This document shows positions 25,517 to 30,126 of a stretch of 30,126 nt of DNA, piece after piece. Position 1 is the first letter of the stretch; the number at the start of each line of letters is the position of its first letter. A program made the translations under genes and the position numbers. This stretch comes from Methanotrichaceae archaeon (GTDB lineage Archaea > Halobacteriota > Methanosarcinia > Methanotrichales > Methanotrichaceae), in NCBI GenBank assembly GCA_963748825.1, contig CAVVKN010000014.1, positions 1 to 30,126 of the forward strand. Reading direction: 5' to 3'. A model generated the notes under the pieces. That model worked only from the letters and a program-made list of their open reading frames with translations, did no database searches and had not been told where the DNA came from.

Positions 25517-26236
25517 TTATTTTCCTTTTTGCCGGCCATCCGGCGCGCTTCCCAGATAGCGGCGGCCCACCAGACGCATCTGATCATCCAGCTCGTAGAC
25601 CAGGGGCTGCGCCGTGGCGATTTCCACATTTTCGATCTCCTGATCAGAGATGTTTTCCAGATGCTTCACCAGGGCGCGGACGGTGTTGCCGTGCGAGACA
25701 ACCAGGACATTCTTGCCCTTCTGCAGCTCCGGAGCAATCAAGGCCCGCCAGAAGGGCAGCACGCGCTCCTGCGTGTCTTGCAGGGATTCCGTCCTGGGCA
25801 GCAGGCTCTCCTGCACATCCCGGTAGCGCGCATCCATGCCGGGATAGCGATCGTCATCCACGGAAACAGCGGGTGGCCGCTCTGAAAAGTCCCTCCTCCA
25901 CATCTGAACCTGCGCGCACCCGTACATCTTTTCCATCTCTGCCTTGCTCTTCCCCTGCAGATCTCCGTAAAAGCGCTCGTTGAGCCGCCAGCAGGGCAGA
26001 GCCGGAATCCACATCAGATCCATCTCATCCAGCACGATCCACAGCGTTCTGATGGCACGCTTTAAAACTGAGGTAAAGGCGATGTCAAAGGAAAGGCCGG
26101 AGCTCTTCATGAGCCATCCGGCCTCACCGGCCTCAGCTCTGCCCCTCTCGGAGAGATCAATATCCATCCAGCCTGTGAACCTGCCTTCCAGGTTGAAGAG
26201 GCTCTGGCCATGCCGCAGCAATACCAGCTTCGCCAT
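25517..26236 (-). CDS. gpmA: 2,3-bisphosphoglycerate-dependent phosphoglycerate mutase
   Basis: LVLLRHGQS…NLEGRFTGW, LNERFYGDLQG, ESLQDT…R and SHGNTVRALVK. Confidence 0.95.
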   Translation of the reverse strand: MAKLVLLRHGQSLFNLEGRFTGWMDIDLSERGRAEAGEAGWLMKSSGLSFDIAFTSVLKRAIRTLWIVLDEMDLMWIPALPCWRLNERFYGDLQGKSKAEMEKMYGCAQVQMWRRDFSERPPAVSVDDDRYPGMDARYRDVQESLLPRTESLQDTQERVLPFWRALIAPELQKGKNVLVVSHGNTVRALVKHLENISDQEIENVEIATAQPLVYELDDQMRLVGRRYLGSAPDGRQKGK

Positions 26237-26267
26237 TTAAGTTCCCCTCTGGCATCGTCTCCCAGAG

Positions 26268-27218
26268 TTAGTCTCCTCCCCGGTAGATCTTGTAGGCCTC
26301 ATCAACGCTGGCATTCTCCACGGTTATAGCGTAAATGGCATTGCAAAGGCGCACTGCCTCTGCCAGAGGCCTCTGGTGGATGTTTCGGCCTGTGGCATTT
26401 CCGGCCGCGCCGCTGATATGGATCTGGTCATGAAGCCTCTGCAAAAATTCTCGCGCATCGGTGCTTTCCCCACCGGCGCAGACAACCCTGGTGCGACCCG
26501 CTGCCGCCGCAACCTCCCGGAAGATCAAAGCCGAATCCTGGCCCACTTTCTGAGGATAGTTGACCTTGACAAAGTCAGAGCCAAGTGTTGCGGCCACGCC
26601 AGCAGCACCGGCGATGAGGTGAGGATCCTTCTCGTCCTTCACCGCTTTTCCGCGGGGGTAGATCCAGAGCACCGTCACCAGTCCCGCTTGATGGGCCTGG
26701 AAGACCAACTGTGCCGCCTCGCGAAGCATCGCTCCTTCGTGCTCGCTTCCCAGATAGATGGTATAGCCCACGCCCAAAATGTCCAGTCCACAGCTCTCCT
26801 TAAAATCAACAACCTGTCTTACATCGATCCACTGCGGACTGCAGGGATCTGCCTGGGCCGTCTTCACCAGATTGGTCTTGGAGTTCAGCTTCACCAAGTA
26901 AGGCACATTGGAATAGTCCATGCCGTAGCGAGCGATGAGGCCGAGCTGAGCGGCAAAGACGCCGATATTGCCTTCCGCAGCAATACGGAAAAGATGCTCG
27001 GGATCGTTATCTTGCGGGTCTATCCCCGGCCCAAAGAAATCGTCATTGAGATGCTCTGCTTTCTGATCTCCGGCAAAGAGCATCAACCGACCGCTGCCTT
27101 TGGTGATCTTTAGGTAGTTATCCTTGTATTTGGAGCGGCTCTCTTCCGGCACATCCAGAGGAACTATGATATTTTCTGCCATTTCACTCACCCCTTTTTC
27201 CGCCTTCTGCTCGCTCAT
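26268..27218 (-). CDS. Class I (DhnA-type) fructose-bisphosphate aldolase
   Basis: LFAGDQKAEH, GYTIYLGSE, LWIYPRG, DFVKVNYP (Schiff-base Lys) and GRNIHQ. Confidence 0.9.
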   Translation of the reverse strand: MSEQKAEKGVSEMAENIIVPLDVPEESRSKYKDNYLKITKGSGRLMLFAGDQKAEHLNDDFFGPGIDPQDNDPEHLFRIAAEGNIGVFAAQLGLIARYGMDYSNVPYLVKLNSKTNLVKTAQADPCSPQWIDVRQVVDFKESCGLDILGVGYTIYLGSEHEGAMLREAAQLVFQAHQAGLVTVLWIYPRGKAVKDEKDPHLIAGAAGVAATLGSDFVKVNYPQKVGQDSALIFREVAAAAGRTRVVCAGGESTDAREFLQRLHDQIHISGAAGNATGRNIHQRPLAEAVRLCNAIYAITVENASVDEAYKIYRGGD

Positions 27219-28153
27219 GCTCTCTCGGAAAGCACGGTCAGCTTCACCTGTGGCACCAACCGCTCGAAATCATCCTTCTGGGCCAGCGCCGTCCCCTGAT
27301 ACAAAGTGGTAGCCGTTCCGGCTGCTGCAGCATAGACCAGGCACTCTTTCAGGCTCTTGCCCTGCATCAGGCCGCTTATGAATCCTGCCACTGAGGAGTC
27401 TCCCGCTCCAATGGTACTCTGCACATCCACGTAGGGAGGTACGGCCAGATACTCATGGCCTTCCGAGACCAGCAGGATGCCTTTTCCCCCCATGGATACA
27501 AGAACGATCTTCACGCCCTGCCGGTTGATCTCTCTGGCGGCAGCGCAAATCTCATCCAGCCCCTTGAGCTCTCGGCCCACCAGCTCAGACAGCTCATGAA
27601 TATTGGGCTTGATGACATCTGGTCGGGCCAGAATTCCCGCGCGAAGGGCTTCGCCATCAACATCCAGCACCACAGTGGACTGGCATTTTTTTACTATTGT
27701 TATTATCTTTCTGTAAATCTCAGGAGTAACGCCCAGGGGAAGACTGCCTCCGATGGCCACCAGATCGCTGCAGGGCAGCCTCTCCAGCAGCTCCACGAAC
27801 TCCATAATCTCTGACGGCTTTATCTCCGGGCCGCGAGCATTGAAGGCTAGCTGCTTTGCCGTTTCCTTCTCATGGATGATAATGTTCGTGCGCGTCTCAC
27901 CCGAGACATGAACAAAATCCGTCTGAATGCCCTCGTTGAGCAATCTACCCTCCAGCTCCCGGCCAGCGAAGCCTCCCACGAATCCTAAAGCGATGTTGTC
28001 CACTCCCAGGTTCTTAAGCACTTTAGAGACATCAACGCTTTTGCCTCCTGCGAAGCTCTTCTCCTCCAAGATACGGTTGGACACATCGTCGCGTACCTTT
28101 TGAATCCAAAGGGTGCGGTCCAGTGCCGGATTGAGAGTAATCGTGTAGATCAT
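27215..28153 (-). CDS. pfkB: PfkB-family 1-phosphofructokinase-like hexose-phosphate kinase
   Basis: MIYTITLNPALD, GGKSVDVS, TRTN, IKPNIHEL and STIGAGDSSVAG. Start ATG 28153. Confidence 0.9.
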   Translation of the reverse strand: MIYTITLNPALDRTLWIQKVRDDVSNRILEEKSFAGGKSVDVSKVLKNLGVDNIALGFVGGFAGRELEGRLLNEGIQTDFVHVSGETRTNIIIHEKETAKQLAFNARGPEIKPSEIMEFVELLERLPCSDLVAIGGSLPLGVTPEIYRKIITIVKKCQSTVVLDVDGEALRAGILARPDVIKPNIHELSELVGRELKGLDEICAAAREINRQGVKIVLVSMGGKGILLVSEGHEYLAVPPYVDVQSTIGAGDSSVAGFISGLMQGKSLKECLVYAAAAGTATTLYQGTALAQKDDFERLVPQVKLTVLSERA

Positions 28154-28297
28154 GAGGGAGTACTTTCTGCGGCAAATGTATTGACTCTTTTGCCCGGGCC
28201 CGGCCGTGCAGCCGCAAGAAAAAGCCCGGCTTTGAATTCCTTCGGCAATTGCCATTAGTAGAAACTATTATATACGTTGATGACCGTATTGGATGTA

Positions 28298-28353
28298 GGC
28301 AAAGGTCAAGCCAGATCAAATCCCTCCTATTCATTGACTTTTGCTCCCCCTCC
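28298..28353 (+). ncRNA. Putative anti-Shine-Dalgarno hairpin sRNA, copy 1
   Basis: GGCAAAGGTCAA/TTGACTTTTGCT stem, loop containing AATCCCTCCT, C-rich tail. GAAA…TTATATA starts 30 nt upstream (28268). Confidence 0.65.
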
Positions 28354-28477
28354 TAATTATAACATAATTCGGCATGCCCTGCGGAAAACGGCTTTTGAGG
28401 ACTCTACCGTTTTGGATTCTAGAGCTTTTTGAAGGCCACCGAAAGGCTTATAACGTCATATGTCGGAGTCAGTTTAA

Positions 28478-28532
28478 GGCAAAAGTCGACGACCATCAAT
28501 CCCTCCTACAAGTGGACTTTTGCCCTCCCTCC
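28478..28532 (+). ncRNA. Putative anti-Shine-Dalgarno hairpin sRNA, copy 2
   Basis: GGCAAAAGTC/GACTTTTGCC stem, loop containing AATCCCTCCT, tail CTCCCTCC. CCGAAAGGC-TTATAA starts 30 nt upstream (28448). Confidence 0.65.
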
Positions 28533-28603
28533 TTCTCACAAGATGCAGGAAAGGCTCTTTCAGACCGATAATTTTATATCCGTTTAATGTCGTTAGATTT
28601 TTA

Positions 28604-28658
28604 AGCAAAGGTCGAAATATCACAATCCCTCCCAAGGAATCGACTTTTGCTCCCTCCC
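28604..28658 (+). ncRNA. Putative anti-Shine-Dalgarno hairpin sRNA, copy 3
   Basis: AGCAAAGGTCGA/TCGACTTTTGCT stem, loop containing AATCCCTCCC, tail CCCTCCC. CCGATAA-TTTTATAT lies 30 nt upstream (28574). Confidence 0.65.
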
Positions 28659-28724
28659 ATTATCAACCACGTCGATCGCCTAAGCCGAAAGGCTTATATT
28701 CGTCAAGCGTCGTAACCATGCATT

Positions 28725-28778
28725 GGCAAGAGTCAAGCATTTTAATCCCTCCTACACCACTGGCTTTTGCTATTCCTC
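28725..28778 (+). ncRNA. Putative anti-Shine-Dalgarno hairpin sRNA, copy 4
   Basis: GGCAAGAGTCA/TGGCTTTTGCT stem, loop containing AATCCCTCCT. CCGAAAGGC-TTATAT starts 31 nt upstream (28694). Confidence 0.6.
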
Positions 28779-28824
28779 GTTATTCGCTTGTTTTAGATAT
28801 CGCAGGCACTGTAGCCTCCTTTTT

Positions 28825-29068
28825 ATGCCAGATCCTGTGCATCACCGACACGCACATCCAGGAATGGGATGACATCAAAAAGGCCTTCGGAGAAGGGAAA
28901 GCCGTGCTCTTCTGCATCGACCTGGCCTACAAGGATAAGCATGTTGAAGAAGCGCTGGCGGGTTTAGGCATGGTGTACAACATCAACCGCCCGGAGGATC
29001 TTGTCTCTCTGGTGGTGGATGTCGCAGGGCGAGTCTATTGCGGGGAAAGTTTTATCTACTCGCAGTAG
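28825..29068 (+). CDS. Small hypothetical protein (probably about 80 aa, start apparently frameshifted)
   Basis: The GC-richer 3' part of ORF 28520..29068 (QILCITDTHIQEWDD…ESFIYSQ) looks coding. ATG at 28825 is one base out of frame. The 5' part of that ORF merely crosses the hairpin array. Confidence 0.4.
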
Positions 29069-29084
29069 ACTGCAATTCTGGCGT

Positions 29085-29156
29085 GCCGGGATAGGGTAGT
29101 GGTTATCCTGAGGGACTGTGGATCCCTCGAGCTGGGTTCGAATCCCGGTCCCGGCC
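29085..29156 (+). tRNA. tRNA-His (anticodon GTG)
   Basis: GCCGGGA/TCCCGGC acceptor, AGGGA-CTGTGGA-TCCCT anticodon arm, GGTTCGAATCC T-loop and C73 discriminator. GAAAG-TTTTAT promoter at about 29045-29055. Confidence 0.95.
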
Positions 29157-29489
29157 CCTAAATCGATTTTATGCAAATTATATATTAGAATTTCAATGAT
29201 AGGCTCGTTTTTTCTCACTTTGCATTATCTGCTAACCGCCTTCTCGAATGTCATGTTCTCCCCCGGCCCCCAGCGCATCTTGATGTCCTGCCATTTGGCC
29301 AAGTACAAAGCCAGTTCTCTCCAAAAAGCGCTCAGTCACTCCCGTCTCTGGCGATCGCTCCAGCCCTCCGCGGAGCCGTCCAGCTCGCGGGCTTCGCTGC
29401 CGGGCCACGGCCTCCTCACAGCCGCACGAACCCGCAGTCCACACGCGCGCGGGCGGGGCCGCATGGCTCCGGCATCGCTTGAATCAGGC

Positions 29490-29735
29490 TTATGCCTTTA
29501 GCGCCACTTCTCCCGCCGCTAGAGGCTTTGCCAAGAGCTTTCCCGCGAAAAATTCCTCCATAACCTCATCTATCTTCTCAGAGATTTCAGGAGTGATATA
29601 CGCTTCATCGCAGCAATCACACACCAGAGCAGGAACGTCCCTAATGACGATTACTTCATTCTTTACTTTAACAACAAATTCTTTTTTACCTTCGTGCAGC
29701 TTGCCCTTGCAGCAACCACAAGTATCTGGAATCAT
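29490..29735 (-). CDS. YgiT-type zinc-finger (MqsA-like) antitoxin
   Basis: CGCCKG…VIRDVPALVCDCCDEAY. Start ATG 29735 in an ATGA overlap with the upstream gene. Confidence 0.85.
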   Translation of the reverse strand: MIPDTCGCCKGKLHEGKKEFVVKVKNEVIVIRDVPALVCDCCDEAYITPEISEKIDEVMEEFFAGKLLAKPLAAGEVALKA

Positions 29736-30061
29736 TCGTTTTTCCTCAGGCAGTAATTTATCCATCTCTCTTCATCAGGCCAATATACTGTGATGATCCG
29801 CAAGTGGTCCTGGCAACAGGCCACAACTGCGTGACACGGACGGCCGGACACAAGCCCCATTATGAGAACTGCTGGACACGGCTCCTTGTCCGGATACTCC
29901 TCTATTATCTCTCCGTTGATTATTAAGTCTACCAGGTCCCTGTTGAAGATGCGCCTTTCAAACATCCTGGCGCGGGCGTGAAAAGTCAGCCGATAGTTGC
30001 GTTCGTAAACATTCTTTTTAATTTCATCGATGAGGCTAATTGGTTTCACCTCTTTGACCAT
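29732..30061 (-). CDS. DUF4258-domain putative toxin
   Basis: TFHARARMFER…GEIIEEYPD…LIMG…HAVV…IITVYWPD…W. Confidence 0.85.
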   Translation of the reverse strand: MVKEVKPISLIDEIKKNVYERNYRLTFHARARMFERRIFNRDLVDLIINGEIIEEYPDKEPCPAVLIMGLVSGRPCHAVVACCQDHLRIITVYWPDEERWINYCLRKNE

Positions 30062-30126
30062 TCAACGCCGATTGGTATCTCAGATTCAGGTCTTCCGCTG
30101 CATGGATCATAACCTTTTCGCATCTC

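Follow-up and report, generated by a model that had tools for sequence, protein, structure and literature searches.

A tandem array of hairpin units in a Methanotrichaceae archaeon, members of an apparently undescribed archaeal small-RNA gene family

The array and its promoters

The stretch analyzed here, referred to as the window, comprises 30,126 nucleotides (nt) of a Methanotrichaceae genome (positions 1 to 30,126 of contig CAVVKN010000014.1, assembly GCA_963748825.1). Between positions 28259 and 28784, its + strand carries a tandem array of four units, each with a promoter made up of a transcription factor B recognition element (BRE) and a TATA box ahead of a hairpin, and these are members of an apparently undescribed archaeal small-RNA gene family. 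TTATA starts at 28268, 28448, 28574, and 28694, with the stems 30, 30, 30, and 31 nt farther downstream, at 28298, 28478, 28604, and 28725, just where a preliminary description of this DNA had placed them. The composite pattern TTATA-N25-28-GCAARRGTC-N24-30-CTTTTGC matched the + strand four times and the − strand not at all, and had no match in 100 dinucleotide shuffles. Four-way alignment of the units showed AATCCCTCC, GCAA, GTC, and CTTTTGC to be invariant; all four loops share the invariant AAUCCCUCC, and a C/U-rich tail follows each stem. Distances from one unit start to the next are irregular (179/180, 126/127, and 120 nt), Tandem Repeats Finder returned 0 rows for this region, and the only inverted repeats detected at the array were the unit stems. 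A clustered regularly interspaced short palindromic repeat (CRISPR) array or a simple tandem repeat, both already discounted in the preliminary description, is ruled out by the irregular spacing, the empty Tandem Repeats Finder result, and the presence of a promoter in each unit.

The units, all on the + strand, were scored with R1, a covariance model built from the four of them. Unit 1 has its promoter at 28259–28290, with a weak BRE-like GAAAC, the TATA box TTATATA at 28268–28274, and then the conserved motif ACGTTGATGACCGTA; its predicted RNA (28297–28358; 77.7 bits) has a stem at 28298–28309/28334–28345, a 24-nt loop, AAUCCCUCC at 28319–28327, and the tail UCCCCCUCCUAAUU. The promoter of unit 2 (28438–28470) consists of the BRE CCGAAAGG, the TATA box CTTATAA (TTATA at 28448), and the motif ACGTCATATGTCGG, ahead of a predicted RNA at 28477–28537 (76.1 bits) with a stem at 28478–28490/28512–28524 that includes one G.G mismatch, AAUCCCUCC at 28498–28506, and the tail CCUCCCUCCUUCUC. 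For unit 3, the BRE-like CCGATAAT, the TATA box TTTATAT (TTATA at 28574), and the motif CCGTTTAATGTCGTTA lie within 28565–28596, and the predicted RNA (28603–28664; 79.3 bits) has a stem at 28604–28615/28640–28651, with an outer A-U pair and a CGA/UCG variant, AAUCCCUCC at 28624–28632, and the tail CCCUCCCAUUAUC. Unit 4 repeats the BRE CCGAAAGG in a promoter at 28685–28716 with the TATA box CTTATAT (TTATA at 28694) and the motif TCGTCAAGCGTCGTA; its predicted RNA (28724–28784; 72.7 bits) combines a stem at 28724–28735/28761–28772, with three G-U/U-G pairs, with AAUCCCUCC at 28744–28752 and a weaker tail, AUUCCUCGUUAUU.

An ungapped stack of 62 upstream regions from this and related copies reads accgAaa...TTAtattcGtc.a.tgtcgta.......tagGCAAAaGTCgA, in which ccgAaa-N3-TTAtat sits ∼31 nt ahead of GCAA. 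The BRE and TATA box stand at a fixed distance in all copies examined, including 16 copies in the genome of the window and others from different genera and families, and each unit is supported, as far as sequence can tell, as an independent archaeal gene with its own promoter and predicted transcription. Archaeal TATA boxes are usually centered ∼26–27 nt upstream of the transcription start; on this geometry, transcription would begin 1–3 nt ahead of the stem. Past the stem, the 62 copies have an 8–9-nt C-rich stretch and then a T-rich stretch, with conservation gone by ∼13 nt, and a T-rich pentamer begins 5–14 nt past the stem in 36 of the 62. The RNA is predicted to end in this T-rich stretch, ∼10–14 nt past the stem, and would thus be ∼58–62 nt long.

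In every member, the stretch from the TATA box to the predicted start contains a partly palindromic conserved motif, ACGnC-N4-GnCGTA (for example, TCGGCAATTGCCGTA or ACGTCATATGTCGT). Its occurrences in the window, at 28275–28290, 28454–28468, 28580–28596, and 28700–28716 on the + strand, are conserved with all related copies, and the motif suggests a possible operator through which one DNA-binding regulator might control the whole family. A loose genome scan for it returned mostly unconvincing matches outside the family. Three non-family sites in the same genome (C13:683, C18:18218, and C9:121227) carry CGnCATTCnACGTA after TA-rich boxes.

RNA structure, distribution, and genomic setting

On the + strand, each unit folds into a 12-bp stem and leaves the 24–25-nt loop open and the C/U-rich tail free, with z-scores between −1.2 and −3.8; the − strand folds were no better than shuffles (z −1.1 to +1.1). 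Pairing was quantified in 62 copies from 36 loci aligned to R1, giving 737 pair cells; in this alignment, which was fitted to the model and holds related sequences in which most stem pairs never vary, 93.6% of the cells were paired and five pairs changed on both sides (35 cells). Not one of 500 shuffles attained any of the five pairing measures, and sliding the partner by 1–3 columns reduced pairing to 36–51%. Thirty more divergent matches, aligned in the same way and including two lower-scoring opposite-strand matches to the same hairpins, were 95.5% paired. True covariation rested on the outermost pair (GC 28, AU 12, GU 12) and the innermost pair (AU 18, GC 17, GU 14), and variation within the stem was almost solely from A-U to G-U, with 68 G-U/U-G cells in the 62-copy alignment; since these cells would read A-C on the − strand, the helix fits the + strand only. 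The units have the marks of structured non-coding RNA, with a one-strand helix kept by compensatory and wobble changes.

The preliminary description had proposed a + strand RNA structure under selection, and the G-U changes and the compensatory changes at the stem ends of related copies, which fit that strand alone, agree with it. Its further statement that all non-Watson-Crick positions are G-U does not hold, as the loop-proximal pair is G.G in unit 2 and A.C in unit 4, and, of its stem differences that preserve pairing, the CGA/TCG variant is fully paired in unit 3 alone.

In the 2.88-Mb genome of the window, the exact pattern AATCCCTCC-N5-14-CTTTTGC has four sites, which are the four window units alone. 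R1 gave 18 matches at E ≤ 10 in the same genome, 16 of which have a BRE/TATA promoter, a gap of ∼27–31 nt, a GGCAAARGTCG stem, a C-rich loop, CTTTTGC, and a C/U tail; all 16 fold alike, and the two weakest matches were unconvincing. These copies sit between crude open reading frame (ORF) calls in every orientation to their neighbors, with the exception of C17, which falls inside one crude ORF call.

Beyond this genome, R1 matched every one of the 36 genomes searched in the same genus, 3–14 times each and often in tandem, and, in an even draw of the class, 74 of 74 other Methanotrichaceae genomes from 15 genera, along with 5/67, 2/4, 2/2, and 0/3 genomes of other families. A broader model, R2, was run on 150 genomes of the phylum and matched 4/4 in the family, 7/14 in a neighboring family (two genera), and 1/5 in one further family, with no match in the remaining 23 families sampled. 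These genome sets are samples that include some incomplete genomes, so a family without a match is one in which the RNAs were not found rather than one from which they are absent. Neither R1 nor R2 found anything in several Methanosarcinaceae genera, the largest genomes searched included. In an exact-pattern scan of all species genomes, which proved too loose, most of the matches listed were single chance matches in unrelated bacteria; the informative ones among the matches listed were from a Methanothrix sp. (two in tandem), a Methanosaeta sp., a Methanotrichaceae archaeon, and a Methanosarcinales archaeon. The preliminary description had read the units as ∼60-nt + strand small RNAs of one paralogous archaeal family, a reading that the promoters, the hairpin, the downstream boundary, and the 74/74 genomes support comparatively, the transcripts being predicted; a covariance model of the four units, which it had suggested, gave the additional copies in the same genome and the family-wide matches.

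Single-copy relatives with the same promoter spacing and a GGCAAAAGUCG/CGRCUUUUGCC stem were seen in other genera of the class (L164, 1470–1590; L196; L166; L201–L203) and in another family (L204). Their loops are 40–60 nt long and their tails are not C-rich, and the loop of L204 carries CCUCCUCCUACA. One weak match, L167, was rejected as a family member because it looks like a terminator-type hairpin after a gene.

Each of the four units of the window represents a sequence type of its own, all four types are met again in other species of the genus, and the copy number of the array varies from 1 to 4 across related loci. The array adjoins a homolog of a pfkB-family kinase (79–95% identity) in 14 of 29 related loci, and a tRNA-His gene lies downstream, oriented as the array is, both in the window and in 4 of 35 other loci. 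Given the recurring paralog types and the conserved neighbors, the array is old and orthologous.

The tRNA-His gene (GTG anticodon; 29085–29158, + strand) has its own BRE/TATA, GAAAGTTTTATCT, at ∼29045–29058, about 30 nt upstream. This promoter lies inside the 3′ end of an open frame at 28799–29068 (+ strand), which has no canonical start near its conserved part and no Pfam match and of which tblastn found the C-terminal half alone, in 2 of 29 related loci; the frame may be what is left of a gene, or else a small gene that lacks annotation. On the other side of the array, three genes on the − strand (25517–28153) run together and encode a pfkB-family sugar kinase, a DeoC/LacD-type aldolase, and a histidine phosphatase. 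The kinase likely starts with MIYTITLNPALDRT at ∼28153 and not at the upstream ATG at 28255, and no obvious Shine-Dalgarno sequence precedes the start at ∼28153. A weak match to the SAM-IV riboswitch at 27204–27352 (− strand; 21 bits, where the gathering score is 38; E = 1.3) falls inside coding sequence and is probably due to chance. At 29490–30061 on the − strand, two overlapping small genes encode a DUF4258 protein (109 aa) and then a protein of 91 aa whose MqsA-antitoxin-like match is weak (E = 0.0015) and falls short of the cut-off; together they look like a toxin-antitoxin pair.

Comparison with described RNAs

No Rfam family matched the units when all families were searched at E ≤ 10 against window positions 27000–30126 and at E ≤ 1 against eight related loci, in line with the preliminary description, which had not recognized a described family. 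Likewise, neither an account of the family nor any paper on the small RNAs of Methanothrix was found in the literature searched, which covered Methanothrix/Methanosaeta small RNAs, archaeal anti-Shine-Dalgarno small RNAs, and sRNA41, insofar as it lies outside subscription papers and supplements.

The closest analog is the bacterial cuckoo RNAs, including CcsR1-4 (RF02344), which are described as carrying an anti-Shine-Dalgarno motif in hairpin loops and forming clusters of up to nine copies, with global versus specific repression as an open question (PMC4615179; PMC8034643). The two groups share clustered paralogous small RNAs with a C-rich loop motif, and Rhodobacter sphaeroides has four tandem copies, as does the window. 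The cuckoo RNAs, however, are bacterial and the Methanotrichaceae RNAs archaeal; the former have two to four hairpins, variable stems, and the motif CCUCCUCCC, whereas the latter have one hairpin, a near-invariant stem, UCCCUCCUAC, and a second C-rich site in the 3′ tail. CcsR1-4 are moreover cut by RNase E from one 3′ untranslated region transcript (PMC8034643), whereas each unit here has a promoter. Membership in RF02344 was rejected on the lack of an Rfam match, the single hairpin per unit, and the loop UCCCUCC(UAC) in place of CCUCCUCCC. The likeness is one of analogy, not homology.

In the staphylococcal UCCC-motif RNAs (RsaE and others) and in sX13 and RepG, C-rich motifs displayed in loops pair with ribosome-binding regions that are rich in G. 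These bacterial RNAs are related to the present family in neither sequence nor structure and are not known to form large sets of individually promoted paralogs; PMC4615179 counts them as cuckoo-like. Among archaea, Methanosarcina mazei sRNA41 is reported to mask ribosome-binding sites within polycistronic ACDS mRNAs, and loop 2 of M. mazei sRNA154 to mask the ribosome-binding site of glnA2 (PMC5867862). These are also intergenic small RNAs of a related methanogen and appear to be single genes (PMC5867862), whereas the present family has ∼16 copies per genome.

The 3′ end of 16S rRNA (helix 45 and the anti-Shine-Dalgarno tail), ending in ...GCGGCUGGAUCACCUCCU, has the same arrangement as the small RNAs, ending in ...GACUUUUGCCUCCCUCCUUCUU, namely a hairpin followed by a single-stranded CCUCC tail. 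This likeness extends to layout and a 5–6-nt motif only, the small RNAs are not homologs of the 16S end, and any functional meaning is speculative. Four identical 16S rRNA 3′ ends were located in the genome of the window (C5:2537, C7:3420, C10:171712, and C18:3498); at least three of them lie within ∼3.5 kb of a contig end, and therefore the rRNA operons probably break the assembly.

C-rich motifs and possible modes of action

CCUCC or CCCUC occurs in the loop of all 61 copies that could be parsed (one of the 62 could not), a C-rich motif occurs in 50 of the 61 tails, and the tails are 2% G. The 3′ end of the genome's own 16S rRNA is GGAUCACCUCCU, and the RNAs therefore carry up to two copies of the ribosome's anti-Shine-Dalgarno core. 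In the mechanism proposed here, a 5′-terminal 12-bp hairpin would present a G-poor 24–25-nt loop with (A)AUCCCUCCUAC, and a single-stranded C/U-rich tail would usually hold a second CCCUCC, both motifs being complementary to GGAGG(G). Loop and tail could then pair in trans with purine-rich ribosome-binding sites of mRNAs and hinder binding of the 30S subunit; as each of the ∼16 genes would supply up to two sites, a broad effect rather than a gene-specific one may result. Pairing in trans is favored because of the G-poor, C-rich loops and tails, the 16S end, and the reported archaeal and bacterial precedents. Taken as a whole, the reading that these are stand-alone multicopy small-RNA genes, predicted to be transcribed and to pair through loop and tail with GGAGG-type ribosome-binding sites, seems to us about evenly poised; the stand-alone RNA genes are held with more confidence than this joint assessment and the pairing mechanism with less.

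Several results weigh against this reading. No specific mRNA target stood clearly above controls, either in searches of the genome for anchored complementarity runs or when the complement of the conserved loop motif was looked for, whether G-U pairs were tolerated or not; of 15 genomic GTAGGAGGG sites, nine are the antisense of the RNAs themselves. RNAduplex, applied to 6427 candidate initiation regions, gave best energies of −27 to −30 kcal/mol against −23.6 to −27.3 for reversed-loop controls, which covered a quarter of the sites, and nothing convincing emerged. GGAGGG lies upstream of only 82 of 2998 crude gene calls. Conservation of the loop also exceeds what pairing with GGAGG needs, as it extends over UCCCUCCUAC, often followed by AUCC, or a split CCCUCC...CCCUACAUCC, with UAC, often ACAUCC, as the extra conserved part. 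The stem raises a related difficulty: the sequence of 10 of its 12 pairs hardly varies, even from one family to another, which would suit recognition by a protein better than mere base pairing, and its sequence is kept in the single-copy relatives of other families, with loops 40 nt longer and tails without CCUCC. The stem may be the ancestral and possibly protein-recognized part.

Also against the reading, no strong oligo-T terminator follows the hairpins, and with 35 of the 62 copies having no T4 run within 45 nt, the 3′ end is uncertain. Sequencing runs matched only small shares of the window, and contigs assembled from four metatranscriptome runs (depth 2–3.4, 90–99% identity) cover 28253–28396, 28492–28716, 28611–28769, and the tRNA-His region. 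Since these contigs run on through promoters and spacers, neither discrete 60-nt RNAs nor a strand can be read from them. Assembled contigs of this kind cannot show RNA ends, strand, or level, and they carry no weight for or against short transcripts.

Among the competing explanations, the one that survives best holds that the RNAs are mainly protein-binding decoys or scaffolds, not antisense regulators, and that their hairpin and CCUCC tail copy the layout of the 16S rRNA 3′ end, by which they could titrate a factor for that end or for C-rich RNA; archaeal KH-domain proteins such as Dim2/Pno1, or Nob1, are candidate partners. The stem, GCAAAAGUCG/CGACUUUUGC, is nearly invariant over 15 genera, persists in the single-copy relatives with their differing loops and tails, and could itself be a protein recognition site, and decoys would also accommodate the lack of an outstanding mRNA target and a conserved loop motif longer than the Shine-Dalgarno complement. 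The 16S end GGAUCACCUCCU resembles the loop AAUCCCUCCUAC, but this likeness is short, and loops and tails that are single-stranded and poor in G are just as typical of base-pairing seeds. We consider decoys or scaffolds somewhat unlikely.

A second alternative places the function in DNA or in cis, with the units as regulator-binding promoter arrays or as leader or attenuator hairpins for pfkB and tRNA-His. It draws on the recurrent position of the array beside pfkB homologs and upstream of tRNA-His, on the operator-like motif in each promoter, and on the RNA-library contigs that cross the spacers. Twelve other copies in the same genome, however, have unrelated surroundings, take every orientation, and are often separated from the next ORF by hundreds of nt, and tRNA-His has its own BRE/TATA. 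The G-U pairs and compensatory changes indicate selection on an RNA helix, and conservation stops 13 nt past the stem. A DNA-level or cis-acting role is accordingly rated as very unlikely.

The genes could instead be tiny ORFs on the − strand, since in units 2, 3, and 4 the reverse complement of the loop, GGAGGGAUU, is followed by AUG or GUG and resembles a ribosome-binding site with a start codon (GGAGGGAUUGAUG and GGAGGGAUUAAAAUG in units 2 and 4, GGAGGGAUUGUG in unit 3), and short − strand ORFs are listed at 28474–28635 and 28032–28334. The start codon is not conserved, however, being missing in unit 1 and in many orthologs; loop lengths differ by non-multiples of 3, and positions are conserved as in a helix and not as in codons. 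In all copies, the BRE is 5′ of the TATA box on the + strand, and therefore the promoters face away from such ORFs, for which we see hardly any probability. We rate as equally improbable that the units derive from a miniature mobile element, as remnants or as copies, or that they are functionless chance repeats: they are multicopy and dispersed over ∼16 loci per genome with unrelated flanks, but they show no target duplications, unit conservation runs from the BRE to 13 nt past the stem, and the paralog types (units 1–4) and the pfkB-side locus are kept across species. Their presence in all 74 family genomes searched further indicates long-term purifying selection, and a match to the end of a miniature inverted-repeat transposable element, raised as a possible refutation in the preliminary description, was not borne out, as no terminal inverted repeats occur at the unit ends and the stems are the sole inverted repeats. 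Guide RNAs are marked by C/D boxes, or by a pseudouridylation pocket with a K-turn and an ACA box; box C/D and H/ACA guides were rejected, as inspection of the alignments showed neither conserved RUGAUGA/CUGA boxes nor conserved ACA boxes, nor an upper stem.

The reading of the array as stand-alone small-RNA genes with ribosome-binding-site-complementary motifs can be extended to a more speculative scheme, which we think rather improbable, in which Methanotrichaceae have ∼10–16 co-regulated genes for minimal mimics of the 16S rRNA 3′ end, in which the CCUCC motif of the tail recurs in the loop; one repressor, bound at ACGnC-N4-GnCGTA in every promoter, would turn all of these genes on jointly, and their RNAs would compete with ribosomes, or with a factor that binds the 16S end, for Shine-Dalgarno sequences. 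Methanothrix is among the main acetate-consuming methane producers. If the scheme were true, it would allow genome-wide retuning of translation, for instance during starvation of slow-growing acetate-using methanogens, and would amount to global control of translation of a kind not so far reported from archaea. The covariance model could enter RNA family libraries for the annotation of Methanotrichaceae genomes. With many individually promoted copies, two motifs complementary to ribosome-binding sites, and an apparently shared promoter motif, the family is a candidate for post-transcriptional, possibly global, control of translation in Methanotrichaceae.

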